DNA of 64,000 nt from a virus (IMGVR_UViG_3300032334_001923:63288-127287), one strand, 5' to 3'. Positions 49,699 through 64,000 are shown, counted from the stretch's first letter. The notes: generated from the sequence alone by a model not told the origin. Numbers and translations are program-made.

Positions 49699-50247
49699 AT
49701 GATTTTAAACCCGAAAGCTAATAGTTTTTACTTTAATTTCCCTAAAGGATTCTTTAGCGAGAGAGTAACTCAAAAGTATGAAAAATACATCAAAAGACAG
49801 CCAATACCTTTTGATAATGTGCAGCAGTATGTAAACAGCACAATTCAATCTGTAGGGTTTCCTAGTATATCTATAGACACAGTTGAACAAGTTAGACTAC
49901 TAGGTAAGAAGATAAATTATAAAAGTTCAACCCCTATTCAGGATTTATTCTCAAGGGATTTCTCTATTAACTTTAAAATGGCGGACGGGTTCGTGAATTA
50001 CTTCATACTTTTAGACACCGTCTTAGATTTTCTTAATTTTGAGAACCCCCAGTTATTTATACAGGATTTGCCTCTAAGAATAATGGACAATGAGGGGAAC
50101 GTCCTCTTTTCATTGACCTTCCAGGAGGTAATTTTCAGCTCCCTGAATAACATAGATCTATCTTATACTAACAATAGTCCAAACTTTACCGCATTCACAC
50201 TAGGATTTAGATGTAACTACATAGACATAGTTACGGAGATAAAGTAA
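49699..50247 (+). CDS. Tail-tube-fold protein (tube/terminator-like)
   Basis: 182 aa; YVNSTIQSVGFP...FSINF...LPLRIMD...FTLGF layout resembles gp19/gp3-type proteins. Confidence 0.5.
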   Translation: MILNPKANSFYFNFPKGFFSERVTQKYEKYIKRQPIPFDNVQQYVNSTIQSVGFPSISIDTVEQVRLLGKKINYKSSTPIQDLFSRDFSINFKMADGFVNYFILLDTVLDFLNFENPQLFIQDLPLRIMDNEGNVLFSLTFQEVIFSSLNNIDLSYTNNSPNFTAFTLGFRCNYIDIVTEIK

Positions 50248-50248
50248 A

Positions 50249-50256
50249 GATATATA
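50249..50256 (+). promoter_or_regulatory. Candidate late promoter GATATATA
   Basis: 21 nt before ATG 50278. Confidence 0.55.
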
Positions 50257-50277
50257 AACTAAACAAATTAGAAAAAT

Positions 50278-50508
50278 ATGAAAAGCTTCACTCAGAAAGT
50301 AAACGAAATGAAATACGCACAGCCTCTAGGAGGTCAAAAAGACCAAATGAAGAACCTTTTGGTTGCTGCTGCTGGAAACGATCAAAGAGTATTAAACGAT
50401 TTGGTAAACTGCTTAACTGACGACCAAATGGAGAAATGCTTCCAAAAGCTTTCTAAAGTTTATGGATACACTGGATCTTTTGGTCAGATCGTTCACCCTT
50501 CAATGTAA
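50278..50508 (+). CDS. Small hypothetical protein with capsid-targeting-like N-terminus
   Basis: Starts MKSFTQKVNE, compared with the T4 internal-protein signal MKTYQEFIAE. Confidence 0.55.
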   Translation: MKSFTQKVNEMKYAQPLGGQKDQMKNLLVAAAGNDQRVLNDLVNCLTDDQMEKCFQKLSKVYGYTGSFGQIVHPSM

Positions 50509-50512
50509 TTTC

Positions 50513-51232
50513 ATGTCAGAAGACAAAAATTTTGTAGGTATAGACTTTTCGATAAACTCACCAGCCTTTTGCTGTTTTAAAGACGGCAAATATATCTGGG
50601 GATCGTTAACTAGATCCGATCGAACAAGCGAATCTCTAACAAAAAATTCAAAAAAACCGTTTTCTGTTCTAAGCACAGAAACCGATTTTCACCTGCATTT
50701 CTTGGATAAGAAGGAACTTCCCGAGGACTACACCGGAAGGGAGAGAACCAAGATAGTTTATTTTAACGAGATTGCAGAGAAACTATGGAATAGCATCTTA
50801 GAGATAATGGGTGATTCTGAGTTCTTTGTAGCAATGGAGGGACTAAGCTTCTCTTCAAACGGAAATGCCCTAATAGACATCTCTATGGCAACTGCTCTTT
50901 TAAGAAAAAAGATTATAGATAGAGTGAGTGTCGATAACTTTTATGTTTTTTCGCCAACCTCTATTAAAAAGTTTGCTCTAAAGGGGAATGCTAAAAAGGA
51001 CGAGCTTTACGAAGCTCTTTGCAAAGTAAGCGACGGAACAAATCTGAAGAACTTTACTAATATATTAGAGTTCAACAAATCTGAATGGATAACTCCAAAA
51101 AAGGTTGTTAACAAACCAATTGATGATATTGTGGACGCAACTTGGATAACTTTATATTTAAAGGAAGAATTAAAGGGAAAATTAAAGGAAATTTATGGAA
51201 TTAAAGGAAATTTTGAATCGACATCTGCTTGA
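50513..51232 (+). CDS. ruvC: RuvC-like Holliday junction resolvase
   Basis: FVGIDFS, AMEGLSF, PTSIKK, AKKDEL and DDIVDA acidic motifs; start moved to ATG 50513 to avoid overlap. Confidence 0.8.
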   Translation: MSEDKNFVGIDFSINSPAFCCFKDGKYIWGSLTRSDRTSESLTKNSKKPFSVLSTETDFHLHFLDKKELPEDYTGRERTKIVYFNEIAEKLWNSILEIMGDSEFFVAMEGLSFSSNGNALIDISMATALLRKKIIDRVSVDNFYVFSPTSIKKFALKGNAKKDELYEALCKVSDGTNLKNFTNILEFNKSEWITPKKVVNKPIDDIVDATWITLYLKEELKGKLKEIYGIKGNFESTSA

Positions 51233-51458
51233 GACCTCTGAAATATCAAATGACTTTTCTACAAACGAGGAGTATCTAAACTCCGTAACAGAGGCGGCCG
51301 AAATAATCATTACAGCTTTACAGTCTAACAATAAAATAATCACTGCGGGGAACGGCGGGTCCATGTGTGATGCTATGCACTTTGCTAGCGAACTTAGTGG
51401 AAACTATAGAGATGATAGAAGTCCTTTACCTACTATTGATATATCCAATTCATCTTAG
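51195..51458 (+). pseudogene. gmhA: Truncated phosphoheptose isomerase (GmhA N-terminal half)
   Basis: KIITAGNGGSMCDAMHFASELSGNYRDDRSPLP is a clear GmhA/SIS motif; it stops at 87 aa and no continuation was seen downstream. Confidence 0.85.
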
Positions 51459-51550
51459 ATATGGTAGAAAAAAAATTATTTAAAATTAAACAAAATTAAG
51501 AGAAACAAAAGGAAAACAAAAACTAAAAACTAAAAATAAATTTTAAAATC

Positions 51551-52519
51551 ATGAGCAATTTAGACATTTTTAATCTCGACGCAGAAGCTTTTGTAACAAA
51601 AGCAAATCAACAAACAAGTGGTAAAGAATTAGATTTTTACAAGCCTTATCCAGAAGACGGCAAGGATGGAGTTTACAAATCTTTGGTTAGATTTGTTCCT
51701 AACCAAGTAAATCCTGCTAAGTCTAAAATCCATAAGTACTATGTGTATTTAAACGATCCAGTTTCAGGAAATGGCTTCTCAGTAGACTGTCCATCAACAG
51801 TTGGAAAGAAATCAATTTTAAAAGACCTCTTTTGGAAATTGAAAAACTCACATTCGGCTGCAGATCAAGAACTTGCTAAGAAGTTCTCAAGAAAAGAGGA
51901 CTACTATGCTTTAGTTCAAATCGTCCAAGATAAAAACAAACCTGAATTAGAAGGAAAGATTATGATCTTCAAGTTCGGTAAAAAAATCAACGATCTTATT
52001 GAAGCTCAACTTCAACCAGAATACGGAGATCCTTGCAATCCTTTTGACCTTTTCGGAGGAAGAGAATTTGCTGTTCACGTAAGAAAAGTAGGCGAATGGA
52101 ACAACTACGATCTTTGTTCTTTTGTAGGTGAAAAAGCACCAATTAAAGTAAACGGATCTCCGATGTCAAAGAATCAAGATGACATGAACAAGATTCTTGA
52201 GTATTTAAAAACCGGTCCTCAAAATCTAACGTCTTTTGATTACAAAGATTGGGATGACGAGGTAACAGATAAGGTGATGACAGTTATTAAAAACACTGTA
52301 CCTGAAGCAAGAATCGTAAACGAGATCGTAGGATCTGTATCTAGCTCTTCTTCAAATTACAGCAAGCCTGCTCCGCCTGCAAGTTCTTCAGATGATATCT
52401 ATAACGAAGTTAGCAACACTAAAGTTGGATCTGCTAAATCTGAGAGCGCTCAGTCTGCTCAGCAATCAGCTCCTTCTAAGTCTAGCTCTTCTTTAGAGGA
52501 TCTTTATAACGATCTTTAA
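51551..52519 (+). CDS. Single-stranded DNA-binding protein (T4 gp32-like)
   Basis: VRFVP, DCPST, YALVQIVQD, MIFKFGKKI, NPFDLF, NNYD motifs; acidic tail SLEDLYNDL. Confidence 0.9.
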   Translation: MSNLDIFNLDAEAFVTKANQQTSGKELDFYKPYPEDGKDGVYKSLVRFVPNQVNPAKSKIHKYYVYLNDPVSGNGFSVDCPSTVGKKSILKDLFWKLKNSHSAADQELAKKFSRKEDYYALVQIVQDKNKPELEGKIMIFKFGKKINDLIEAQLQPEYGDPCNPFDLFGGREFAVHVRKVGEWNNYDLCSFVGEKAPIKVNGSPMSKNQDDMNKILEYLKTGPQNLTSFDYKDWDDEVTDKVMTVIKNTVPEARIVNEIVGSVSSSSSNYSKPAPPASSSDDIYNEVSNTKVGSAKSESAQSAQQSAPSKSSSSLEDLYNDL

Positions 52520-52532
52520 TCACAATATAAAC

Positions 52533-52569
52533 AAGGACAGTCTTTTTAGAGGACTGTCCTTATTTTTTT
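52533..52569 (+). terminator. Intrinsic terminator
   Basis: AAGGACAGTC-loop-GACTGTCCTT followed by a T tract, after the SSB gene. Confidence 0.85.
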
Positions 52570-52572
52570 AAA

Positions 52573-53640
52573 ATGGAATTATCTAGAATAGAAGACTTAG
52601 TAAGAACAGTCCTATCAAAGGAATTTAAGGGAGACCCTGCGAGACAGATTGTCTACAAAGCGGGTAATAGACTTAATTTCTCTTGTCCTTATTGTGGGGA
52701 TTCTGTAAAAGAAGCAAAGAAGAAAAGAGGTAATTTCTATCTAGATACTTTATCTTATAAGTGCTATAATGGTGGGTGCGGGATATTTAAGGATTCAGCT
52801 TCTTTCTTTAAAGATTTTTCTGTTTATTCTAGACTCAGTGGAGATGAAAGGGAGGAGATCAGAGGTGTATTGGAAGAGAATAGAAACAAAAGAAAGGTTT
52901 CCTATGGAAAAATAGACGTGGGATTATTTTTCGAAAATGACATCACCGATATCATTATACCCCGAAGTGAATTCATTTCTCGTCTTAAGTTACAAGAGGT
53001 GGCAGGATCACAAATACAAAGATACATCCAGAGAAGATCTCAGAGGACAGATTCTAGGTTTGCTTGGGATCAGAAGTGGCAAAAACTATATCTATTTAAT
53101 CTTACTCCAGATGAAAAGATTGTAGGACTCCAGGTTAGAAATATGGAATCATTTAAAGGTTCCACTAAATACTTAACATATAAGCTGAGCGGCATTTATG
53201 AAAAAATTCTAAAAGAGACTAATCAGGAGATATTGGATAAAGCCAGAGAAGTTGATCCAATATCTAACGTCTTTGGAATAGGCTCACTTGATTTCAGCAG
53301 GGATATAACAATCTTTGAAGGCCCAATGGATTCTTGGTTATGGGAAAATTCTGTTGGTCTTTGCTCTCTAGAAAATAGATTCCCTTTTGATGTGGATAAC
53401 AAAAGATTTTGGTATGACTGGGATAAACCAGGTATACAGAAATCAATAGATCTTCTAGGAGCTGGAGAAACAGTTTTTAACTGGGGAAAATTTTTGGAAG
53501 AAAACAATATAACAAAGAATAGAAAATGGGATTTGAATGACGTTGTTATTCATCTCAGAACAACCGGTAAAAAAATAAAAAGATTCGATAACTATTTTAC
53601 AAATGATGTCCTTGACCTTAGATATTTTATTAATGAGTGA
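52573..53640 (+). CDS. DNA primase (T4 gp61-like)
   Basis: Zn finger CPYCGDS...CYNGGC; TOPRIM motifs FEGPMDS and YDWD. Confidence 0.88.
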   Translation: MELSRIEDLVRTVLSKEFKGDPARQIVYKAGNRLNFSCPYCGDSVKEAKKKRGNFYLDTLSYKCYNGGCGIFKDSASFFKDFSVYSRLSGDEREEIRGVLEENRNKRKVSYGKIDVGLFFENDITDIIIPRSEFISRLKLQEVAGSQIQRYIQRRSQRTDSRFAWDQKWQKLYLFNLTPDEKIVGLQVRNMESFKGSTKYLTYKLSGIYEKILKETNQEILDKAREVDPISNVFGIGSLDFSRDITIFEGPMDSWLWENSVGLCSLENRFPFDVDNKRFWYDWDKPGIQKSIDLLGAGETVFNWGKFLEENNITKNRKWDLNDVVIHLRTTGKKIKRFDNYFTNDVLDLRYFINE

Positions 53641-53884
53641 TCCTTCCTCCGGTTCAGATAAAACTGGAGAATGGGAGCATGAAATAGATAGAAGAAGTTC
53701 TCCAAAGAAAAAATTCCCTTTAAAGATTAGAACAGATCTTAGCGATCTGAACTCTGAGTTTAAAGATCCAGAGGTGTCGGATCCACCAAAGAGAAAATCA
53801 GAGATGAAGAAGGAAGCTAGAGTGGTGGAAACAGGCAAGAGTAAAAATAGGGGTAAATCCAAAGACAAAACAAAACTTTTTTAA
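53633..53884 (+). CDS. Small charged hypothetical protein
   Basis: Likely start ATG 53633 overlapping the primase stop; ends abutting uvsY. Confidence 0.45.
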   Translation: MSDPSSGSDKTGEWEHEIDRRSSPKKKFPLKIRTDLSDLNSEFKDPEVSDPPKRKSEMKKEARVVETGKSKNRGKSKDKTKLF

Positions 53885-54331
53885 ATGTCAACAGAAGAGA
53901 AAAAAGACTTTAATAAAATATTCGAAGGTGAAAGAAATGAATGGAAGGAGAAGATCCAGGTGATTTCTTTACAGATGAAGGATATAAAGACACTAGCAAA
54001 AGCCCAGGTGGATCTTTTTAGTCAAAGACAAATATTGCTGGAGTACAGCTATAAATTAGCATCCATAATTTCTAAACTAAACACAAAGTATAGAAGCGAA
54101 AAGTCTAGGAAGCTAAAGGATTACTCTGAAAACAACGATGTTCGATATGGATCTAACGAGAAGACTGTTTTAATAGAAGGAGATTTAAGCGAGATACTAG
54201 AAAAAATAGAATTGGTAGAAGGACATAGAAAATTTATAGATCAAACCACACAAACCGTGGATCACATGCTTTATGGTGTGAAGAGTCGCATTGCTCTTGA
54301 AGATTACCTAAGGGGCAACACAATTAAATAG
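53885..54331 (+). CDS. uvsY: Recombination mediator UvsY-like
   Basis: 148-aa helical protein (EKTVLIEGDL...HMLYGVKSRI) directly upstream of uvsW, the T4-like arrangement. Confidence 0.7.
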   Translation: MSTEEKKDFNKIFEGERNEWKEKIQVISLQMKDIKTLAKAQVDLFSQRQILLEYSYKLASIISKLNTKYRSEKSRKLKDYSENNDVRYGSNEKTVLIEGDLSEILEKIELVEGHRKFIDQTTQTVDHMLYGVKSRIALEDYLRGNTIK

Positions 54332-54343
54332 AATATATAATAA

Positions 54344-55867
54344 ATGCTTAAATTCCAAGTTTCTGAAGACCAACAATGGATGATTCTTTTAGAGTCATTA
54401 GACGAGGTCGAGAAGAAACAAATAGAAATATCTCTCACAAAGAAGATCCACAACTTCTATTTTCATCCACTGGTAAAGAAAAAACTATGGGATGGGAATA
54501 TTTGTTTTGTTGAAAAAAGGGGTGGCTACTGGAAAGTCCCAATAGGCCTCTGGAGAGAGGTTATGCAAATAGGGGAAGACTATAATATAAAGATTGAAAT
54601 AAATGGTCTTGACAACATCATCAATCCGAATTTAACCCTCGAGGAATACACTTCATGGGTTAATGACTTTTTTGCAGATTCCGATATAGAGCCAAGAGAT
54701 TACCAGATAGAAACAGCATGGAAGATTATAAAGTATAGATACTCAATTTCTGAGGTGGCAACGTCTTCTGGAAAAACCCTTATCTCCTTTATGATATTTG
54801 CTTATCTTAAATCTAAAGGACTGGTTCGTAAATTCATGATGGTTGTGCCTAGCACCAATCTTGTTTTTCAAGGAAGCGATGATTTCGATGATTATGGTCT
54901 TGCTAAGCTTGGAGTTAAGATTCAACAAATAGGTGGTGGTAATAAATTAAGGGAAGGATGTGATTTAATTATTGGAACATTCCAATCTCTAGTTAAACAA
55001 GACAAGGAATTTTTTGAAGAGATTGATGCAGTTTTTGTTGACGAAGCGCACCACACCAACTCCAATTCTATTAAGAAGATAGTTTCACATTGCATGCACT
55101 CTAAATGGAGATTCGGATTAACCGGAACTTTGACCAAAAGAGGCACTGCAGATTATCTAACCATTCAGCAATTTCTAGGACCACTCGTCGTGGAAATCCC
55201 ACCGAGCTTTCTATTTGCCAATAACTATGCAACTCCCGTTTCTATCAAGGTTGTTATTATGGACTGGTTAGAGAAAGAGTATAAAGAGAAACTAGCGGAT
55301 CTTAAATTGAACAACAACAACCTGGAGGGGAATGAAGTTTATAACATAGAAAGGAAACTTGTGATAGAGAGCAAGAAGCGTCTTAATTATGTAGTTGACT
55401 TCATCAGTAAAACATCTAAAAATTCACTGGTGTTATTCCAATCTGTAAAGGACGAATACGGAAAACAGATATGGAATTTAATCAGGGAAAAGAATAACGA
55501 CAAAGAGGTTTTCTATGTTGACGGAGAAACCGATGAGGGATTAAGAGAAGAATATAAATCTAGAATGGGAGGGGGTAACAATAAGATTCTCGTTGCAACC
55601 TACGGTACGTTCTCCACAGGTATTTCCATAAATAACCTACATAATATCTTTTTAGTTGAGTCTTACAAGAGCGAAGTTCTCATAAAACAGAGCTTGGGTA
55701 GAGGTATGAGAAAAATGGAGGGCAAGGAAAAAGTTAACGTTATTGACTTCGTGGATGACTTTTCCACTCCTAAATACCAAAACTACCTTATTAAGCACGG
55801 AAATGCCCGTATAGAGATCTATAAAAAGGAGGGCTTCGAATACCGGGTTTTTAATATAAAACTTTAA
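54344..55867 (+). CDS. uvsW: UvsW-like SF2 DNA helicase
   Basis: PRDYQ, ATSSGKT, VDEAH, GLTGT, TYGTFSTGISI, QSLGRGMR. Confidence 0.93.
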   Translation: MLKFQVSEDQQWMILLESLDEVEKKQIEISLTKKIHNFYFHPLVKKKLWDGNICFVEKRGGYWKVPIGLWREVMQIGEDYNIKIEINGLDNIINPNLTLEEYTSWVNDFFADSDIEPRDYQIETAWKIIKYRYSISEVATSSGKTLISFMIFAYLKSKGLVRKFMMVVPSTNLVFQGSDDFDDYGLAKLGVKIQQIGGGNKLREGCDLIIGTFQSLVKQDKEFFEEIDAVFVDEAHHTNSNSIKKIVSHCMHSKWRFGLTGTLTKRGTADYLTIQQFLGPLVVEIPPSFLFANNYATPVSIKVVIMDWLEKEYKEKLADLKLNNNNLEGNEVYNIERKLVIESKKRLNYVVDFISKTSKNSLVLFQSVKDEYGKQIWNLIREKNNDKEVFYVDGETDEGLREEYKSRMGGGNNKILVATYGTFSTGISINNLHNIFLVESYKSEVLIKQSLGRGMRKMEGKEKVNVIDFVDDFSTPKYQNYLIKHGNARIEIYKKEGFEYRVFNIKL

Positions 55868-55874
55868 TTTCGGG

Positions 55875-55882
55875 GATATATA
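55875..55882 (+). promoter_or_regulatory. Candidate late promoter GATATATA
   Basis: 20 nt before ATG 55903. Confidence 0.55.
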
Positions 55883-55902
55883 CATAAAAATAATTAGGTT
55901 AG

Positions 55903-56496
55903 ATGCGCATAAAAAGATTTGATGATTTTAATAGTCCCCTTAACGAGTCACGCCATTCGTCAAGAGAATACAGCTACTCTGACTATTTTGAGGGTAAAAA
56001 CAAGTTTAGCAAATGGCTAAGAGGAGTTTCTAATAACCTTAAGTGGGATGCTAAAGAATTACAGGATCAAGCTGCAGATTCGAAAAGCAATATTAGCGGT
56101 GGACAAACTGTTAGCAGTATCAGATCTATTTTTCCCACACTGGGCAGAGTTATTTTTGGTGCCGGTGCCGCTGTAGCGGACTTCTTCTCCAAAGGAGACT
56201 CTAAGGACAGCTTAAGTAAACTTTCTAAGAAGGATATAAAAACCAAAAAAGAGGAGCTCTTAGATGACTGGGAGAAGAGACAACTTAAGGGCAAAAAGAT
56301 AGAACAAACAGACGCTGAAAAGTTTTACAAATCTGGAGTGTTAAAAGGTAAAGGGTATTTCGGAAAGGAATACAATCCCCTAAATCCTAAGAATGACGAT
56401 GAAAGAGCCTATTCCGAATATCTGGGAGGTGCAATGTCAAGATACTATGATAAAATAGAAAATCCAATTTATGCTAAGAGAGAAAAAAGTTCTTAA
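55903..56496 (+). CDS. Hypothetical protein with capsid-targeting-like N-terminus
   Basis: MRIKRFDDFNSPLNE-S, then YSYSDYFE-G. Confidence 0.55.
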   Translation: MRIKRFDDFNSPLNESRHSSREYSYSDYFEGKNKFSKWLRGVSNNLKWDAKELQDQAADSKSNISGGQTVSSIRSIFPTLGRVIFGAGAAVADFFSKGDSKDSLSKLSKKDIKTKKEELLDDWEKRQLKGKKIEQTDAEKFYKSGVLKGKGYFGKEYNPLNPKNDDERAYSEYLGGAMSRYYDKIENPIYAKREKSS

Positions 56497-57409
56497 CTTC
56501 GAGGGATTCAAGAAGATGTTTGAAGGAGGGGCGGCAATAAAGTCATCCAGAAGAATCCGTGAGGATGAGTATCCAAAAACTCTAGAGCATATACAACAGG
56601 TTCTCTTTCCCATTTTAGACATAAATCCAGCAGAAAAAGGCAATGAATACCTAGTAATAGGAAGTATAGGCAAGAAGAGCGATCCTTCAGAGACATCAGG
56701 AGATTTGGATATAGGTTACAACGGTGCTTGGTTTTCTCAAAAGGAGGGAATTCAGTATAAGGAGTGCTCCAAAAAAATCATGGACATTTTACAACCTGAG
56801 CTTGCTACTGTATTGGGATTTGAACCAGAGATCAAATATATGCCAGGTCTTAATATAGTGAGTATAGGATGGCCTATAGAAGGAGATATAAACAAAGGCA
56901 CGGTCCAACTGGATCTTATTCCTTTATCAAATATCGAATGGGCCGAATTTATATACTATTCTCCAGACTATAAGAAGGGTGAGAGCAAATATAAGTCAGC
57001 TCACAGAAACTGGCTTTTCTCCGCTATTCTTTCTGCGAGAAGAAACGAACTGGAAAGGGATGAAGCGGGAGAGATCTTAGACTACGATTCTCCAGTGCTT
57101 ATTTTAAGCGATGGTCTTTTCTGGCACACTAAATCTTATAAGGGAAAGATAAAAGCTAGACTTAAACACTCTCAAAAGATTCCAGGAAGCGAAAGATTCG
57201 TAACGAACAATCCCCAGGAATTTATAGATTTCACATTGGGCAAGGGATATAAACCAGAGGACGTTAAAAGCTTCGAGGATGTGTTTAAAATCATAAATTC
57301 TCCAAGTTTTGACCTTTACGACAAACTTCCTGAAATAAAGGAAAGATATATTGAATACCTGGATCGAGTAAAATTACCGGTTCCAACTGAAATAAATCAG
57401 ATCTCTTAA
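56471..57409 (+). CDS. Pol-beta superfamily nucleotidyltransferase
   Basis: IGSIGKK...SGDLDIG (GS plus DxD) and a third Asp in VQLDLI; N-terminus VLNFEGFKKMFE-GG. Confidence 0.75.
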   Translation: MLREKKVLNFEGFKKMFEGGAAIKSSRRIREDEYPKTLEHIQQVLFPILDINPAEKGNEYLVIGSIGKKSDPSETSGDLDIGYNGAWFSQKEGIQYKECSKKIMDILQPELATVLGFEPEIKYMPGLNIVSIGWPIEGDINKGTVQLDLIPLSNIEWAEFIYYSPDYKKGESKYKSAHRNWLFSAILSARRNELERDEAGEILDYDSPVLILSDGLFWHTKSYKGKIKARLKHSQKIPGSERFVTNNPQEFIDFTLGKGYKPEDVKSFEDVFKIINSPSFDLYDKLPEIKERYIEYLDRVKLPVPTEINQIS

Positions 57410-57437
57410 AATAAAATAAAGACTAATAAAATATTGT

Positions 57438-59429
57438 ATGTCGGGAATAACCCATTTATATGAGCTTTACAACAAGAAAGGAAAGGATTTTATAGACAGT
57501 CTTTTAAATTCTTACGTGACCATCAACGAGAAGATTGACGGATCTGCATTTATCTTTGAAAGAGATGAAGAGAGCGGAAAGTTCAAATTTTACAAAAGAG
57601 ATCAAAGAAACCCTATCACTCTTGTTGACAGGACTCTAATGAAGTATTACGAAAAACCTATCCAGTACATCGAATCACTTCCACCTCACATTATTCAAAG
57701 AATCCCTAGAGGTTGGAGATTCGGTCTAGAGTATCTGTCCACTGTTAATCCGGTAGAGATAGTTTATGATAGAGTTCCCAAGAATAATTTAATCCTCTCC
57801 TATATCCACACAGATAAGGTTGACGATAGGTATAAAGGAACCATACAGAATAAAGAGGAACTTGACACCTGGGCAGATATCTTAGGTGTGGAAAGACCCC
57901 CGATTATTTTCCAGGGCAAATTAAACCCGGATCAGAAAGAGCAGATTCTAAATTTCCTTAGAACCCCTTTTGAAGATCTAGTAAAAGAATATAAGACTAG
58001 AAGCTTTGTAGCTTTTATCATAGGCGTACTTAATCCTGATTTAAAAACAACAGCCCTAAATATGGACTTGAATAAGCCTATAGAGGGAATAGTTTTCAGA
58101 TTCGGTGAAGAAGGATCAAACCAAGAACCTATACTATCTAAAGTTGTAGATCCAGTATTTACGGAACTTGCTAAATCTAAAGCCAAGAAAAAGAAGGAGG
58201 AAAAGCCTAGCGATTTCTTAGGAATAGCAATACTTGATGTTATGAATTTCATTCTTGAGAATGGAGTTGATTCTTTCGAGTTTAGTGGCGAAACAGAGGA
58301 CGAGAGATACATCTCTTTCATCTCTGATGTTTTCTTTAAATTCTTGGAGGAATATTCAGAGAAGTATAAGAGCGCTGATTTCCAAGAGCCTGAATATCTT
58401 AAGAAGGAAGAATTTAGACTTAATAAAGATATGCTAAAGGACAAAAGGGTACTTAAGTATATCGACGAAGACGAGTCTTTCGAATCTTTATATAAGCTCA
58501 TTCTTAATTCATTCAGAAAGATAAAAAAGAGACCTGGTGGAATTATTACCACAGGGATCATGGACCAGTTTAATGATCTGGTTACTCAGATAGAAAAAAG
58601 AGTTGCTGTTAAGAAGAAAGAGACTGTAAACGAGTCTGAAATGATTTCTTTCTTAGACTTCAAAAAGAAGAACATAAAGAAAGTTGATTATCTAACAACA
58701 GAGTCTGACGAGTCTCAGGAATCACCAGAGAACGAGGATGATTGCTTCTATTCTTACAATGAGTTTATTTCAGCTTTAGAAAAAGTTGACACAACCAAAA
58801 AACCTAAATCTAGAGACATCTCAGAAGACGCAGACGAAAAGAAGGAACTCCAACCTGTTAATATGATAGTTGGGAGATTTCAACCTTTCCATAAGGGACA
58901 TCTTAAGATGGCACAAAAACTCAAGGAGAAAAATGATCTTCCTTGTATAGTTGCGGTTGTTCATCCTGACCATAATAAATCTAAAAAATCTCCATTTAAA
59001 CAAGACCTAGTCAGAAGATACATGGAGGGTGTTATTAAAGAGAACCCTGATCTGATTAAAGGATTCTTTATAGTAAACAGAGGTCTTCTCGGAGTGATAT
59101 ACGGAACTGCTAAAGAACACGGATTCCTAGTAAAAACAATAGGAGCAGGTGCAGATAGAATAGAAGACTATAAAAAACAAGAGGAATATCTAAAGAAACA
59201 CGGAAGTGATTTCCCTGAGGATATCCAAGTGGTTGAAACCCCTAGAACTGTAACTGCAACAGAGGTAAGAGAAAAACTTAAAGATGAGGACTTCCTAGGA
59301 TTTAAAAAATTAGTACCGTCTTCGGTTGCTTCTTTTTACCAATCCCTAGTTTCAGCTTTAAACGAAACAGACGTCAAGGAGTCAGAAATCTCTGGAGAAT
59401 CTGAAGATCTAAAAGAAATAGAAAAATAA
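57438..59429 (+). CDS. Fusion of an RNA-ligase-like covalent nucleotidyltransferase domain and a HIGH-type cytidylyl/adenylyltransferase domain
   Basis: Ligase motifs EKIDG, FGLEY, IEGIVFR and SKVVD; HIGH-type GRFQPFHKGH and VTATEVRE. Confidence 0.75.
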   Translation: MSGITHLYELYNKKGKDFIDSLLNSYVTINEKIDGSAFIFERDEESGKFKFYKRDQRNPITLVDRTLMKYYEKPIQYIESLPPHIIQRIPRGWRFGLEYLSTVNPVEIVYDRVPKNNLILSYIHTDKVDDRYKGTIQNKEELDTWADILGVERPPIIFQGKLNPDQKEQILNFLRTPFEDLVKEYKTRSFVAFIIGVLNPDLKTTALNMDLNKPIEGIVFRFGEEGSNQEPILSKVVDPVFTELAKSKAKKKKEEKPSDFLGIAILDVMNFILENGVDSFEFSGETEDERYISFISDVFFKFLEEYSEKYKSADFQEPEYLKKEEFRLNKDMLKDKRVLKYIDEDESFESLYKLILNSFRKIKKRPGGIITTGIMDQFNDLVTQIEKRVAVKKKETVNESEMISFLDFKKKNIKKVDYLTTESDESQESPENEDDCFYSYNEFISALEKVDTTKKPKSRDISEDADEKKELQPVNMIVGRFQPFHKGHLKMAQKLKEKNDLPCIVAVVHPDHNKSKKSPFKQDLVRRYMEGVIKENPDLIKGFFIVNRGLLGVIYGTAKEHGFLVKTIGAGADRIEDYKKQEEYLKKHGSDFPEDIQVVETPRTVTATEVREKLKDEDFLGFKKLVPSSVASFYQSLVSALNETDVKESEISGESEDLKEIEK

Positions 59430-59439
59430 CCAAATAAAA

Positions 59440-59985
59440 ATGAGAATCATAACTAATTTTGATGATTTTAATCCCTCTATGAATGAGTCAGACGGATTCG
59501 GAACATCACCATTCCTTCTAAAAAAGACCAGTGACGTTTATCACTACTTTTTCAACATCGAAAACGAAAATGGAACTGACAATGAAATGGGATATCACCT
59601 TATCATAGGAAAGTATTCTGACATCGAAGTAATCGATGGAGCAAAGAACTCGTATTGCGTTTTAACCCTAAACCAAGTTGCTCACGAAATAATAGACGAT
59701 ATTGCTGTTGACAAGGAAGATATTCCTTTAGCAAATGAAGATAAATTTAAAGCAAAAGGAAACGAGGTTTCTAGACTTATGGAGTACTGCTGCAAGTGTA
59801 TTCAGAACTATCTTGAGCTTAACCCTAAAGTTACCAGAATATATGACGAGATCCAGGATAATCTAGTTTTTGAAGGTGAAGGAACATACATAGAGTTCAT
59901 GAAATCCATAGTTATTTCTTACCTGGGATCAAATTGGTCAGTACAGGAGGGAGCTTCTAAAAAATCAGTTTTAATCACTAGATAA
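59440..59985 (+). CDS. Hypothetical protein with capsid-targeting-like N-terminus
   Basis: MRIITNFDDFNPSMNE-S, nearly the same leader as the 55903 gene. Confidence 0.55.
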   Translation: MRIITNFDDFNPSMNESDGFGTSPFLLKKTSDVYHYFFNIENENGTDNEMGYHLIIGKYSDIEVIDGAKNSYCVLTLNQVAHEIIDDIAVDKEDIPLANEDKFKAKGNEVSRLMEYCCKCIQNYLELNPKVTRIYDEIQDNLVFEGEGTYIEFMKSIVISYLGSNWSVQEGASKKSVLITR

Positions 59986-59986
59986 G

Positions 59987-60018
59987 GAAACAACGGAGGA
60001 ATTTTTAACTATAATAAA
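59987..60018 (+). promoter_or_regulatory. Candidate bipartite promoter GAAAC-N18-TATAATAAA
   Basis: Same spacing as 7958-7989; upstream of the Hc1-like gene. Confidence 0.45.
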
Positions 60019-60039
60019 CAAATTAAAAAAATTTAAAAC

Positions 60040-60222
60040 ATGGAAACATTCGAAAAAATGCAAGCTCTTTTGGAGCAGCTTAAACCAGACGCTCAAAAAT
60101 TCTTTGAAAAAGGTAACGGTTCAGCGGGTACTAGAATTAGACAAAGTATGCAGGAACTTAAGAAATTAGCTCAAGATTTAAGAGCTGAAGTTCAAGAAGC
60201 TAAGAAAACTAAAACTACCTAA
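60040..60222 (+). CDS. Histone H1-like (Hc1-family) small DNA-binding protein
   Basis: KFFEKGNGSAGTRIRQSMQELKKLAQDLR matches the Bacteroidota Hc1-like pattern KGNKAAGTRARK. Confidence 0.8.
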   Translation: METFEKMQALLEQLKPDAQKFFEKGNGSAGTRIRQSMQELKKLAQDLRAEVQEAKKTKTT

Positions 60223-60251
60223 TCTTTTTTTAAACCCCAAAAATATATATA

Positions 60252-60491
60252 ATGAGCTATTATTTAGTAAAAGTAAACACTGAATCAGGTGAAGTAAACA
60301 AAAAGGGAGATCCCGTAATGAAAAAATGGGAATTTCTCGTAGCAGGTGATTCTGTCACTGAAGTAGAAAAAAAAGTCGCAGAATATATGGACGGCACTGT
60401 TGGTGGATTTGAAACCTTCGCGATTTCAAAAACCAAAATTGAAGCTGTCATATACGACAAAGATAAATATGCAGAAGAACTTCTCAACTAA
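60252..60491 (+). CDS. DUF4494-like protein
   Basis: YLVKVN.E......G...K.EFLV.GDSVTEVE.KV pattern resembles Bacteroidota DUF4494. Confidence 0.6.
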   Translation: MSYYLVKVNTESGEVNKKGDPVMKKWEFLVAGDSVTEVEKKVAEYMDGTVGGFETFAISKTKIEAVIYDKDKYAEELLN

Positions 60492-60720
60492 TGAGGGAGA
60501 CACCGGATCTTATCCTCCCCCTCAGTCACCCATAGCAATTCAGCCAGGTGACACAGGATTTAAAACGGTAGGAAAGGGCTACAATCGATTCATTTGGACC
60601 TTTAGCGATTGGGACAAAAGAAAAAAGAAGATCATAGATCCGGATAAAAATTGGGGGTTAGCTTCCAAACCGATGTCAAAATCCGAATGGGATAAAAAGA
60701 AGAAAGATCTATATCTTTAA
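60469..60720 (+). CDS. Small hypothetical protein
   Basis: Likely start ATG 60469 (MQKNFSTNE-GD); ends before a terminator. Confidence 0.45.
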   Translation: MQKNFSTNEGDTGSYPPPQSPIAIQPGDTGFKTVGKGYNRFIWTFSDWDKRKKKIIDPDKNWGLASKPMSKSEWDKKKKDLYL

Positions 60721-60729
60721 GCTATTTTT

Positions 60730-60762
60730 AAAAAAGGACTTATATTTATAAGTCCTTTTTTT
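60730..60762. terminator. Intrinsic terminator, potentially bidirectional
   Basis: AAAAAGGACTTAT-attt-ATAAGTCCTTTTT. Confidence 0.85.
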
Positions 60763-60765
60763 ATT

Positions 60766-60773
60766 GATATATA
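60766..60773 (+). promoter_or_regulatory. Candidate late promoter GATATATA
   Basis: Just after the terminator; 21 nt before ATG 60795. Confidence 0.55.
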
Positions 60774-60794
60774 GTTAAAATCAAAAGAATATTC

Positions 60795-61589
60795 ATGATC
60801 CTATCTTTCGAAAGTTATTTATCTGAAAAAGAATCCTCATACTACACTTCGGTAATTGATTCTGTTAAGCTTATCAACAGTTTTTACTCAGCTGTTAAAT
60901 CAACACAGGCGGAAGAATTACCCAGAGGTAGTAACAAAGGACCTAAGGTAGAGCCCCTTCTGAGAGGTGTTCAAGCGAACGCCGGAGACCCCTGGTGCGC
61001 AGCATTTGTTTATGGTGTTTTGTCTAAAACCGCATTTTCAAAGGATATATTAAAAGATCAGATTCCAGCTGATGCAGCTGTTAGATTACACTGGGCAAAT
61101 TCAAAAGGTAAAAAGATAGAGGTTTATCCAAAGACTATAGATACTATAGATATTAATTCTATTCTTCCTGGAATGGTTTTTTGCTATCTTAGTAAGGACA
61201 AAAAGACTGGAGGATATCCTGGTCACGGGCATACTGGAATAATACTATCTGTGGATAAGGTAAATAAAACATGGACCGGGGTAGAAGGAAATACTAATCC
61301 GCTTGACGGCGGTAGAGAAGGCTACGGTACTTTCATAGTTTCTAGAAATTTATCGAATCCTAGCATAGCTAAAGATCGCGAAGATTATCCAGCTAGGCTT
61401 CTAGGGTTTATAGATTATTTTGCCCCATATAGAAAAACCCCGGGATTCACGGAAGCACTCACATTAAAACTGAAATCTTTAACTAATGAACTATTACCAA
61501 AAACAAAGAATGAGATTGCATATCTAAAAACAAATCCCAAAGTTTTAAGCGACTACGAGAAAAATTATAATAACAGAAATAAATCATAA
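60795..61589 (+). CDS. CHAP-domain peptidoglycan amidase/endopeptidase
   Basis: GSNKGPKV...PWCAAFV, GHTGII and VEGNTN give the Cys-His-Glu catalytic set. Confidence 0.88.
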   Translation: MILSFESYLSEKESSYYTSVIDSVKLINSFYSAVKSTQAEELPRGSNKGPKVEPLLRGVQANAGDPWCAAFVYGVLSKTAFSKDILKDQIPADAAVRLHWANSKGKKIEVYPKTIDTIDINSILPGMVFCYLSKDKKTGGYPGHGHTGIILSVDKVNKTWTGVEGNTNPLDGGREGYGTFIVSRNLSNPSIAKDREDYPARLLGFIDYFAPYRKTPGFTEALTLKLKSLTNELLPKTKNEIAYLKTNPKVLSDYEKNYNNRNKS

Positions 61590-61593
61590 AGAT

Positions 61594-61971
61594 ATGCCAG
61601 CACTAAGTACATCACAACAACGATTAATGGCCCAGGCCTATGCAATTAAGACAGGAGAACTTCAGCCTTCGGACTTAAACCCAAAATACAGAGATGAGAT
61701 CGTTCAACTGGCTCAGAAGATGACTAAAAAACAGCTTAGCGATTTCGCTTCAACCAAGCATAAGAATTTAAAACATCATGTTTCAGAGGAGCAATTAAAG
61801 GATCTTTCTGTAAGTTTAGAACCAATCCCATCCGAGACTATGCCTAAATTCAACCCTCATGGTCCTGGTAAAATCGTTCCTTTTCTAGATCCAGATTCTA
61901 GACAGAGAAAGAAAGGAAAGAAAAATCTTCAAAATCTTAAAGACTATAGAGATTGGTCTAGTCAATCTTAA
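61594..61971 (+). CDS. DUF3008-like protein
   Basis: MPALSTSQQRLMAQAYAIKTG...MTKKQLSDFAST pattern. Confidence 0.6.
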   Translation: MPALSTSQQRLMAQAYAIKTGELQPSDLNPKYRDEIVQLAQKMTKKQLSDFASTKHKNLKHHVSEEQLKDLSVSLEPIPSETMPKFNPHGPGKIVPFLDPDSRQRKKGKKNLQNLKDYRDWSSQS

Positions 61972-61984
61972 TTTGATTTAAAGT

Positions 61985-64000
61985 ATGGCTCAATTTCCTT
62001 CAAATCCTAGAATTGGTCAGGCATTTTTAGCTGATGCAACCACTTTATATGTGTGGAGCGGATATCAGTGGGTTCTGGCAACAGTTGGTGGATCAGGAAC
62101 TGGTTCTAACGGTACCTCCGGGACCTCTGGTATACCTGGTTCTAGTTCAGGATCTAGCGGAAGCTCTGGAAGTAGAGGAAGTTCGGGAACATCAGGAACT
62201 CCCGGCTCTAATGGTTCATCAGGAACTTCTGGCTCTAATGGTTCATCAGGAACTAGCGGAACCTCTGGAAGTAGAGGAAGTTCAGGAAGTTCAGGAACAT
62301 CGGGAACATCAGGAACATCAGGAGCGCAAGGAGGACCTGGAACTTCGGGGTCATCAGGAACTTCTGGCTCTAATGGATCTTCAGGAACTTCTGGCTCTAA
62401 TGGATCTTCAGGAACTTCTGGTTCGAGGGGATCTAGTGGATCTAGTGGATCTAGTGGAATCTCAGGAGCAACCGGGCCAGCGGGAGCTGGAGGAGCCTTG
62501 GGATATTATGGTTCTTTCTATGACACCACAACTCAAACAAATTCTGGGGTAACTGCAGCCAATAAGATAACTCTAAACTCTCTGGATATTGCTAATGGTG
62601 TTTCAGTTAATAATAACTCGGAGGTTACCTTTGCATATCCTGGTGTTTATAATGTACAATTTTCATTACAAGTTAACAAGACCGATTCGGGAGATGATTT
62701 CATAGACATTTGGCTAAGCAAAAATGGATCTAGTGTGCCTTATTCAAACACGACATTGTTTCTTCCTAAGAACGATGCAAAATCCGTAGCTGCTTGGAAC
62801 TTCTTTGTGGAGACAACAGGCCCTTCTGAATACGTGGAGCTGTATTGGAGCTCCTCCGATATCGACATGTTATTATATTCGGGTGCCACAGCTTCATCTC
62901 CAACAAGGCCCGCAATCCCATCTGTGATACTTACAGCCCAACAGGTAATGTATACACAATTGGGACCAACCGGAGCTCAAGGATCCTCCGGAACTAGTGG
63001 ATCTTCAGGAACATCTGGAATCTCAGGCTCTAGCGGTTTATCCGGTCTAGACGGAACATCAGGTTCTTCTGGAACATCAGGTAGCTCTGGCTCTAGCGGA
63101 TCTTCAGGAAACTCTGGATCTTCTGGAACATCTGGATCTAACGGTTCTTCAGGAACATCTGGATCTAACGGTTCTTCAGGGACATCTGGAAGCTCAGGCT
63201 CTAGCGGTTCTTCGGGATCTTCTGGAACATCAGGAAGCTCTGGCTCTAGTGGTTCTTCGGGAAGCTCTGGCTCTAGCGGTTCTTCAGGGACCAGTGGAGT
63301 TAATGGATCTTCAGGAACATCAGGTTCTTCAGGAACATCAGGTAGCTCAGGATCTAGCGGATCTTCTGGAACCTCAGGTTCTTCGGGAACATCCGGAAGC
63401 TCAGGAACGTCGGGATCTTCAGGAACCTCAGGAACATCGGGATCTTCTGGAACAAGCGGAACATCGGGATCTTCAGGAACCTCGGGATCTTCAGGAACCT
63501 CAGGAACCTCGGGATCTTCAGGAACCTCGGGATCTTCAGGAACCTCAGGAACCTCGGGATCTTCAGGATCTTCTGGAACCTCAGGAAGCTCTGGAACCTC
63601 AGGAAGCTCGGGAACCTCAGGATCTAACGGTTCTTCAGGGACCAGTGGAGTTAATGGATCTTCAGGGACATCCGGGTCCAGTGGAACCTCGGGATCTTCA
63701 GGAACAAGCGGAACATCAGGATCTTCTGGAACTTCAGGATCTTCTGGAACATCAGGTAGCACAGGATCTAGCGGATCTTCTGGAACTTCAGGATCTTCTG
63801 GAACATCAGGTAGCACAGGATCTAGTGGATCTTCAGGAAGCTCGGGATCTTCTGGAACTTCAGGATCTTCTGGAACATCAGGATCTTCTGGAACATCAGG
63901 TAGCACAGGATCTAGTGGATCTTCAGGAAGCTCAGGATCTTCTGGAACTTCAGGATCTTCTGGAACATCAGGTAGCACAGGATCTAGTGGATCTTCAGGA
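61985..64000 (+). CDS. Collagen-like (Gly-Ser/Thr-Ser) fibre protein with an internal C1q/BclA-C-like domain, 3'-truncated
   Basis: Not in the ORF track because it has no stop in the window. ATG 61985 gives MAQFPSNPRIGQAF..., GSSGTS repeats, a globular domain YYGSFYDTTTQ...YPGVYNVQFSLQ...YVELYW...SVILTAQQV (about 62500-62950), then Gly every third residue to the end. Confidence 0.9.
   Translation, partial: MAQFPSNPRIGQAFLADATTLYVWSGYQWVLATVGGSGTGSNGTSGTSGIPGSSSGSSGSSGSRGSSGTSGTPGSNGSSGTSGSNGSSGTSGTSGSRGSSGSSGTSGTSGTSGAQGGPGTSGSSGTSGSNGSSGTSGSNGSSGTSGSRGSSGSSGSSGISGATGPAGAGGALGYYGSFYDTTTQTNSGVTAANKITLNSLDIANGVSVNNNSEVTFAYPGVYNVQFSLQVNKTDSGDDFIDIWLSKNGSSVPYSNTTLFLPKNDAKSVAAWNFFVETTGPSEYVELYWSSSDIDMLLYSGATASSPTRPAIPSVILTAQQVMYTQLGPTGAQGSSGTSGSSGTSGISGSSGLSGLDGTSGSSGTSGSSGSSGSSGNSGSSGTSGSNGSSGTSGSNGSSGTSGSSGSSGSSGSSGTSGSSGSSGSSGSSGSSGSSGTSGVNGSSGTSGSSGTSGSSGSSGSSGTSGSSGTSGSSGTSGSSGTSGTSGSSGTSGTSGSSGTSGSSGTSGTSGSSGTSGSSGTSGTSGSSGSSGTSGSSGTSGSSGTSGSNGSSGTSGVNGSSGTSGSSGTSGSSGTSGTSGSSGTSGSSGTSGSTGSSGSSGTSGSSGTSGSTGSSGSSGSSGSSGTSGSSGTSGSSGTSGSTGSSGSSGSSGSSGTSGSSGTSGSTGSSGSSG
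62960..64000 (+). repeat. 9/18-bp low-complexity tandem repeats (GSS-GTS)
   Basis: ggatcttcaggaacatca-type units, with higher-order repeated blocks at about 63720-64000. Confidence 0.95.

Follow-up and report, generated by a model that had tools for sequence, protein, structure and literature searches.

Do the short, mutually similar N-termini carried by otherwise unrelated proteins in one region of a viral genome mark proteins that are packaged into the phage head, cut there by the prohead protease and delivered at infection, as capsid-targeting sequences (CTS) do in phage T4? The question is raised by positions 50278-61971 of a 64,000-nucleotide stretch of DNA (the window), which comprises bases 63288-127287 of a single 127,287-bp IMG/VR virus contig (IMGVR_UViG_3300032334_001923). 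Positions given here are those of the window unless marked genome. The contig is a fragment of an uncultured jumbo T4-related myophage, with a completeness of 46% according to CheckV. Nearly all its genes are on the plus strand, and they include structural genes (tail sheath, tandem portal paralogues, neck and fibre proteins) and replication genes (a gp32-type single-stranded-DNA-binding protein, a primase and a helicase). A sequence-only reading had described the region as a cluster encoding injected proteins with CTS-like leaders. We find that the leader family is real, modular and conserved, and the sequence patterns make it rather likely that the leaders are T4 CTS-like targeting propeptides, cleaved by the phage's own prohead protease.

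The sequence-only reading named six N-termini, and all six lie where it placed them. They belong to the following genes, where a slash marks the predicted cut.

50278 to 50508, plus strand: 76-aa protein, weak candidate propeptide MKSFTQKVNE/M (orthologues MKKYSELQELNE/MKF).
55903 to 56496, plus strand: 197-aa protein, leader in residues 1-15, MRIKRFDDFNSPLNE/S (55903-55947).
56471 to 57409, plus strand: 312-aa predicted Pol-beta/PolX-like nucleotidyltransferase (NTase), leader in residues 1-18, ..KVLNFEGFKKMFE, ending FEGFKKMFE/GGAAIK (56471-56524).
59440 to 59985, plus strand: 181-aa protein, leader in residues 1-16, MRIITNFDDFNPSMNE/SDGFG (59440-59487).
60469 to 60720, plus strand: 83-aa basic protein, weak candidate propeptide MQKNFSTNE/G (orthologues MKNNSSKSAE/T).
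60795 to 61589, plus strand: 264-aa putative CHAP-type peptidase, leader in residues 1-11, MILSFESYLSE/K (60795-60827).

A real, conserved leader is carried by four of these, at 55903, 56471, 59440 and 60795, while the remaining two have only a short x-x-E end. The four share two aromatic residues three apart, followed by hydrophobic-x-Glu, and the consensus can be written as hydrophobic-x-x-F-x-(E/D)-(F/W), a spacer of 0-7 residues, and then (L/I/V)-(N)-E. For searching, the regular expression ^M.{0,7}[FYW]..[FYW].{0,7}[LIVMFY].E (the regex) was used. Three of the four leaders pass it; 56471 fails solely for having its ATG 9 residues ahead of the first Phe, and its orthologues pass. An internal ATG (MFEGG) was considered as the true start of 56471 and rejected: most of the 27 orthologues have Ile or Leu there, and F10 and F13 upstream of it are invariant.

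The genome-wide motif scan that had been suggested as a check found the regex in 8 of 110 genes of at least 50 aa in this genome, against 6 of 473 internal-Met controls, and gave no aromatic pair at 50278 and 60469. In 80 related loci centred on the major capsid protein (MCP) gene the regex is present in 173 of 1246 genes and in 49 of 6062 controls, a 17-fold enrichment over internal-Met starts. The related motifs that had been reported near C-termini, IWTFSDW and NLKDYRDW, turned out to be something else. The former occupies residues 42-48 of an 83-aa protein and is therefore mid-protein, and the latter is found close to the C-terminal end of a DUF3008 protein; each is a conserved segment of the protein core that no Glu cleavage site follows, and they were rejected as leader-related elements.

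The leader behaves as a module. In an all-versus-all BLASTP comparison of 16 candidate proteins, the leader bearers are alike only in their first ~15 residues: residues 3-16 of the 55903 product match residues 4-17 of the 59440 product with 64% identity, and nothing else aligns. In orthologues from eight related loci (45-99% identity) the leader pattern is kept, without exception in those of 45-86%, while its letters change, reading MRIKKFDSFVSESLNE/D in the 197-aa family, MPDNLMDFVKFSRIFE/GG in the NTase family and MNRFIKKFSDFSPVNE/SDGFG in the 181-aa family. Invariant positions are F10, F13, E18, G19 and G20 in the NTase family (27 sequences) and F7, E16 and D18-G21 in the 181-aa family (30 sequences), where the spacer from the aromatic pair to the Glu is of variable length. 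The 127 distinct leaders also show preferences that the regex does not specify: 51% have Asn at P2, 51% Ala or Ser at P1' and 66% an acidic residue between the aromatics, and hydrophobic residues are favoured at -3 and -2. Their length to the Glu is mostly 10-21 residues, with a range of 8-21.

These data bear on the explanation that the leaders have no common function, and reflect composition, chance or a nucleotide-level translation-initiation signal at the 5' ends of late genes. The genome is AT-rich, as are the codons for K, F, N and E, and the regex has a background of 1-3%, all of which would suit such an origin. Among 45 distinct DNA versions of one family, however, P3 is encoded by 11 different codons, Asn by 20 AAC and 20 AAT, and Glu by 29 GAA and 16 GAG. 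Synonymous codons vary freely at the conserved positions, and selection therefore acts on the protein and not on the DNA. The 17-fold enrichment, the invariance of key residues in 27-30 orthologues, and a spacer that varies in length between fixed flanks argue in the same direction. We consider this explanation highly improbable, and already largely refuted.

Structure predictions and distant homologues provide a second view of the same module. The AlphaFold2 model of the NTase has a mean confidence score (pLDDT) of 85, with residues 1-20 below 50; that of the 181-aa protein has a mean of 82 and about 88 in the body, with residues 1-4 and 10-21 below 50. In both models the leader is predicted to be disordered and detached from the folded body, for which pLDDT is 85-95. 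NTase homologues without a leader exist, and begin M-S-G-M-A-I-K in Lak-B6 and M-G-G-A-A-F-K in Sinorhizobium phage Phosso. Their starts are at, or within one residue of, the predicted cut E/GGAAIK, and we rate this as the most telling result. Of the CHAP homologues, 80 of 118 pass the regex, and most of the others have a tighter variant F-x-x-F-N-E or a V/L start; the two most distant have no leader and begin directly at the catalytic domain.

The genome encodes head machinery of the T4 type. The MCP matches Pfam Gp23 (PF07068, E 4e-39), and an S77 T4-type prohead protease domain (PF03420, 36.8 bits, above the cut-off) is found at the start (residues 1-235) of a 666-aa open reading frame (ORF; genome 46422-48419). 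The remainder of this ORF is scaffold-like and contains 14 repeats of 14 aa, each with (L/I/V)-A-E; they are spaced exactly 14 residues apart in residues 302-484 and resemble a built-in ladder of protease sites. By analogy with the treatment of T4 gp22, as described in the accessible text of PMC9026906, the repeats would be cut at the (L/I/V)-A-E sites into 14-mers.

The head proteins themselves carry the same kind of site. In all 44 distinct MCP N-termini listed, MKLINE... and ...HYHSLNE/SAGAY are invariant, and the site HSLNE/SAGAY is placed like the cut that removes the propeptide of T4 gp23, which is 65 residues long (PMC9026906). The protease ORF begins MTRTQTNTLNE/QMVFILEK, and in 23 of the 26 distinct full-length N-termini of its orthologues a variable N-extension precedes the conserved block and was read as ending in hydrophobic-x-E directly ahead of it; T4 gp21, too, has at residue 9 a site that agrees with its own cleavage logo (PMC9026906). 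The leaders close with (L/I/V)-N-E, or with something very near it, and share this motif with the MCP N-terminal sites.

The resemblance to T4 extends to the layout of the leader. The earlier statement that T4 internal proteins carry MKTYQEFIAE was borne out for ipII and ipIII in the T4 record, both of which pass the regex. In T4 internal protein III (IPIII), residues 4 and 7 are the main determinants of targeting, and residues 8 and 10 those of processing; exchanging the Glu for Asp in T4 blocks processing and leaves targeting intact, and T4 propeptides are 10-19 residues long (PMC9026906, accessible text). The T4 record gives these positions in IPIII as Tyr4, Phe7, Ile8 and Glu10, the same layout as in the leaders here. 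Like IPI, IPII, IPIII and Alt, from which gp21 removes the CTS, the leader bearers have a short N-terminal candidate propeptide on mutually unrelated proteins, mostly of 10-21 residues. As judged by pattern, the key positions are three apart and aromatic, as in ipII and ipIII, and beyond them come a hydrophobic residue at P3 and a Glu at P1. A further likeness is that S77 protease, gp23-type MCP and cleavable scaffold occur together, and that the candidate cargo genes are scattered outside the head module. Unlike the contiguous 10-mer of ipII and ipIII, the leaders here have F-x-(E/D)-(F/W), a variable spacer of 0-7 residues and (L/I/V)-N-E.

On the basis of these observations, we hypothesise that the aromatic pair (F-x-E/D-F/W), preceded by hydrophobic or basic residues, would take a late protein, once synthesised, to its docking place on the scaffolding core of the assembling prohead. 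The S77 protease would then cut at (L/I/V)-(N)-E, after the 0-7 residue spacer, and release the mature protein inside the shell, where it would be retained in the virion until its ejection into the host. The candidate cargo consists of the basic 182-aa protein from 55903, the PolX-like NTase from 56471, the acidic 165-aa protein from 59440 and the putative CHAP peptidase from 60795, and from their sequences these four are probably virion cargo. The proposed mechanism is that of the T4 CTS; the case differs from T4 in the consensus, the variable spacer, the type and conservation of the cargo, and the lineage.

The same leader motif is present on further proteins outside 50278-61971, mostly just downstream of the MCP gene. 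Their genes start at the following positions.

Genome 50290: further leader gene.
Genome 51441: further leader gene.
Genome 52342: further leader gene.
Genome 57206: further leader gene.
Genome 59515: further leader gene.

Those at genome 50290, 51441 and 52342 directly follow the MCP gene, and their products are charged and similar both to one another and to the scaffold portion of the protease ORF. This raises the alternative that the leaders do dock and are cut, but that the proteins act only in head assembly, as scaffold or core helpers, and are then degraded or expelled and never delivered. There is a precedent in the T4 core proteins gp22, gp67 and gp68, which are cut up and leave the head, but the T4 Alt and internal proteins, being enzymes and small proteins, are retained and ejected (both PMC9026906, accessible text). 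The leader proteins of the window, among them the PolX-like NTase, the CHAP peptidase and the alpha/beta protein of 165 aa, are predicted to fold as enzymes or as globular proteins and not as coiled-coil scaffolds, and we regard a role confined to assembly as unlikely for them.

It might also be argued that the motif is a docking peptide for a partner other than the capsid, such as the replisome or sliding clamp, a chaperone or Clp adaptor for which it would be the tag, or a modifying enzyme for which it would be the recognition site. T4 has aromatic-acidic tails of the clamp-binding kind, several of the leader bearers are encoded among replication genes, and these are nucleic-acid enzymes. 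However, the same leader is found on scaffold-like proteins of the head module and on a predicted cell-wall peptidase, for which no replisome role is expected; it ends in the motif kept at the N-terminal sites of MCP and protease; and the gp32, primase, helicase and RuvC-like genes that adjoin the leader genes have no leader. A non-capsid partner is accordingly improbable in our view, and we continue with targeting to the capsid followed by cleavage.

The predicted cargo proteins have been further analysed. The predicted mature part of the 55903 product is a basic protein of 182 aa with an isoelectric point (pI) of 9.4, with no Pfam or PHROG family and no usable ESM Atlas match. The NTase has an invariant GSIGKK...SGDLD in 27 sequences. 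In a structural search (VIA) its best match is the PolX of African swine fever virus (ASFV; Z 8.9, rmsd 3.8, 164 residues aligned), and seven of the nine top rows are family X; the support from Foldseek is weaker (E 1e-3). No Pfam family was matched at E up to 0.01, PF10127 (RlaP) included, and no PDB sequence at E up to 1. From its model it is a Pol-beta-fold nucleotidyltransferase with a palm-thumb arrangement, predicted to be closest to the minimal family-X polymerases. It resembles RlaP and ASFV PolX in the GS...SGDLD signature and in having a ligase-like neighbour, here and in Phosso, and differs from RlaP in lacking a PF10127 match and in the leader added by this clade.

The predicted mature part of the 59440 product is an acidic alpha/beta protein of 165 aa with a pI of 4.7. 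VIA-wide it gives middling GNAT-like and RNase E DNase-I-domain rows (Z up to 6.8, weak matches), so the modelled fold is possibly GNAT-like; Foldseek found nothing at E up to 0.001, and there was no usable ESM Atlas match. PDB sequence searches for the 59440 and 60795 products gave chance-level rows only. In the 60795 product a candidate catalytic Cys (residue 68, in DPWCAAF) and His (~146, in GHGHTG) can be read directly. Its match to Pfam CHAP (PF05257) scores 21.8 bits, below the 26-bit cut-off, and many of its homologues have a precomputed PF05257 assignment. The product of 50278 has no Pfam or PHROG family.

A further possible cargo protein lies between the NTase gene and 59440.

57438 to 59429, plus strand: 663-aa ligase-like and NMNAT/cytidylyltransferase-like fusion, with no N-terminal leader.
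58623 to 58703: motif TVNE/S..SFLDF..YLTTE in its linker.
58746 to 58781: motif FYSYNEFISALE in its linker.

The N-terminal domain is ligase-like on the basis of KIDGS at residues 32-36, read directly and with no Pfam match; the C-terminal domain matches PF01467 in residues 477-612, with NMNAT chains among the PDB matches. The two leader-like motifs in the linker are kept in five orthologues, and the fusion may accordingly be addressed and split internally, and join the cargo by way of these internal copies. In the cultured 469-kb Sinorhizobium phage Phosso, the gene immediately upstream of the leaderless 56471 homologue, and overlapping it, is ligase-like, with KLDGS close to its start; the pairing of ligase and NTase is therefore older than the leader.

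These genes have promoter-like elements of the late type. The sequence-only reading had placed several of them downstream of GATATATA, and this holds: the motif is located 21-22 nt before the ATGs at 50278, 55903 and 60795.

50249 to 50256, plus strand: GATATATA late-promoter-like motif, 22 nt before the ATG at 50278.
55875 to 55882, plus strand: GATATATA motif heading the unit 55903-60720.
60736 to 60762, plus strand: terminator-like hairpin (20 nt) with a T-run, just before the next GATATATA, read directly.
60766 to 60773, plus strand: GATATATA motif, 22 nt before the ATG at 60795.

In the window alone the count of GATATATA is not significant (7 against 4.4 expected; 14 of 100 shuffles reach 7). 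Its strand and position, by contrast, are significant: in the 127-kb genome it occurs 22 times on the plus strand and never on the minus strand, and 18 of the 22 are within 80 nt upstream of an ATG, usually at 16-34 nt, where 6.7% of positions qualify. The corresponding counts in the 80 related loci are 430 and 2. It precedes the tail sheath, portal, neck, fibre, baseplate-like and protease genes in addition to 50278, 55903 and 60795. The copy before 55903 is in the same place in all five relatives checked, and that before 50278 is kept in four of five (L002, L005, L007 and L008; L003 does not reach the gene). A 119-aa protein with Sigma70_r2 only is gp55-like in layout. By its pattern, GATATATA is a strand-specific late-promoter-like element of the T4 late (gp55-type) kind, the T4 octamer itself being different. 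From the GATATATA at 55875 and the hairpin at 60736-60762, the genes 55903, 56471, 57438, 59440, an Hc1-like gene, a DUF4494 gene and 60469 look like one late unit.

GATATATA is also found inside the 666-aa protease-scaffold ORF (genome 47054-47130), 65 nt upstream of an internal Met236 (MENNEF...). In the relatives L066 and L072 a separate gene of 423-424 aa begins exactly at the point matching Met236. Taken with the internal GATATATA, this suggests that the scaffold part may also be made alone from an internal late promoter, which would parallel the internal start of T4 gene 21.

Several other genes of the window deserve mention. The Hc1-like gene (60040-60222), in the late unit with the leader genes, encodes a 60-aa histone H1-like protein (PF07432, E 1e-23). 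Its N-terminus, METFEKMQALLE, was considered as a leader and rejected, because the Pfam Hc1 domain covers residues 1-57 and the N-terminus is part of the domain. Such a late-made, DNA-condensing protein could be packaged with the DNA. The RuvC-like resolvase gene (phrog_159, 50462-51232) follows the 76-aa gene directly behind a late-type GATATATA, a placement that fits a late, packaging-linked resolvase such as T4 endonuclease VII. Between it and the gp32 gene, an 87-aa ORF (51195-51458) matches only positions 15-68 of the 138-position SIS_2 family (PF13580), as if a sugar-isomerase gene had been truncated. A strong terminator-like hairpin (13 pairs and a T-run, 52533-52561) stands directly 3' of the gp32 gene and before the primase gene. 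Upstream of the region, a 933-aa protein (46891-49692) has a Gly/Ser-rich stretch followed by a Cys-started segment of ~130 residues (49290-49692) that closes with ...SHN and a short tail, and its sequence resembles a Hint-type ending. At the other end, a very long collagen-like ORF of Gly-Ser/Thr-Ser repeats (61985-64000) runs off the contig; similar repeats open the contig (genome 1-400), and the assembly therefore probably breaks inside the repeat.

The lineage is distant from T4. When its MCP was compared with phage records by tblastn, an uncultured 462-kb phage and the Lak megaphages came out closest (43% identity), followed by Tenacibaculum pT24, Flavobacterium MaF61 and Sphingomonas PAU (~30%). 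The hosts of the clade are predicted to be of the Flavobacteriia type. There are at least 184 related loci in IMG/VR, on contigs of up to 434 kb, and a megablast of 50000-62000 against phage records gave no match. The lineage may be that of the "moraphages", which are freshwater phages of 200-307 kb with Bacteroidota hosts, closer to Lak than to T4 (PMC12619734); the accessible text of that paper does not mention internal proteins or propeptides. In the literature searched we found no virion proteome for the clade, the matches being work on T4, P1 and phiKZ-type phages, and no description of CTS-like leaders in metagenomic huge phages.

A number of observations weigh against delivery of these proteins by the route proposed here. 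Two of the six N-termini, MKSFTQKVNE and MQKNFSTNE, lack the aromatic pair, and in their orthologues it is only the x-x-E end that is kept. When calibrated on 100 kb of T4, the regex selects 6 of 153 ORFs, which include ipII and ipIII, both with MKTYQEFIAE; it misses ipI, Alt, gp67, gp68, gp21, gp22, gp23 and gp24, and wrongly picks gp20 and three small ORFs. With a background of ~1-3% as well, it is neither complete nor clean, and the weight is therefore carried by the enrichment and the conservation. The clearest leader genes adjoin the MCP gene, outside the region, and look like genes for scaffold or core proteins and not for injected effectors. Nor is the region the dedicated cargo cluster that had been proposed: it is a mixture of late-unit genes with leaderless replication and recombination genes (the RuvC-like gene at 50462, the SIS fragment, gp32, primase and helicase), which lie among the leader genes. 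The 57438 fusion has no N-terminal leader, though it is in the late unit with leader genes. GATATATA is only modestly commoner directly upstream of leader genes than of other plus-strand genes in the MCP loci (60 of 170 against 224 of 950), most genes near the MCP being late anyway.

The nature of the cargo raises further points of the same kind. The 60795 product matches PHROG families annotated 'endolysin', and may simply be an endolysin of the usual sort, which in the cytoplasm would have no need of being packaged. The NTase is leaderless in Lak and Phosso, and packaging is thus not needed for its function. Of the cultured phages examined, pT24 and MaF61 are the nearest, and their 25-kb MCP regions have no such leaders. 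The best 120 NTase homologues are 62-100% identical, so that the cargo is strongly conserved, unlike the internal proteins of T4, which are poorly conserved. The candidate cargo differs from that of T4 also in including predicted larger enzymes (PolX-like NTase, CHAP peptidase), in belonging to a distant lineage, and in being known from sequence alone.

A comparison can also be made with the head ejection proteins of phiKZ, 201phi2-1 and SPN3US, which are again giant phages with a T4-related prohead protease. The phiKZ-like phages load many proteins, enzymes included, into the head; cleavage behind the Glu of a three-residue motif takes off their N-terminal propeptides, and conserved N-termini are common to paralogues (PMC5694885, accessible text). 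In contrast to the leaders described here, which are T4-sized and have a hydrophobic P3, their propeptides are mostly of more than 100 residues, and the P3 residue is small (A/S/G-x-E; PMC5694885).

We suggest, tentatively, that the giant Bacteroidota phages of this clade have a portable tag that serves as both address and cutting site, and that it lets them fill the capsid with a ready-made set of enzymes which enters the host together with the DNA. Such a set would comprise the PolX-like NTase, the ligase-like/NMNAT-like fusion split at its internal tags, the peptidoglycan peptidase, and the small basic and acidic proteins. If this is true, nucleic-acid repair, counter-defence and wall-cutting activities would reach the cell ahead of all phage gene expression. 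Repair-type enzymes would then be among the injected proteins, and a cell-wall peptidase would travel in the head; to our knowledge, T4 offers no example of either. The tag might also serve to package foreign proteins into phages of Bacteroidota hosts. The predictions name exact mature N-termini, namely SDGFGTSPF..., GGAAIK... and, for the MCP, SAGAY..., and if they hold, the head-carried proteome of uncultured giant phages would be predictable from the genome alone. The CTS principle would then extend from the T-even phages to a distant and abundant lineage of freshwater and gut-related phages.

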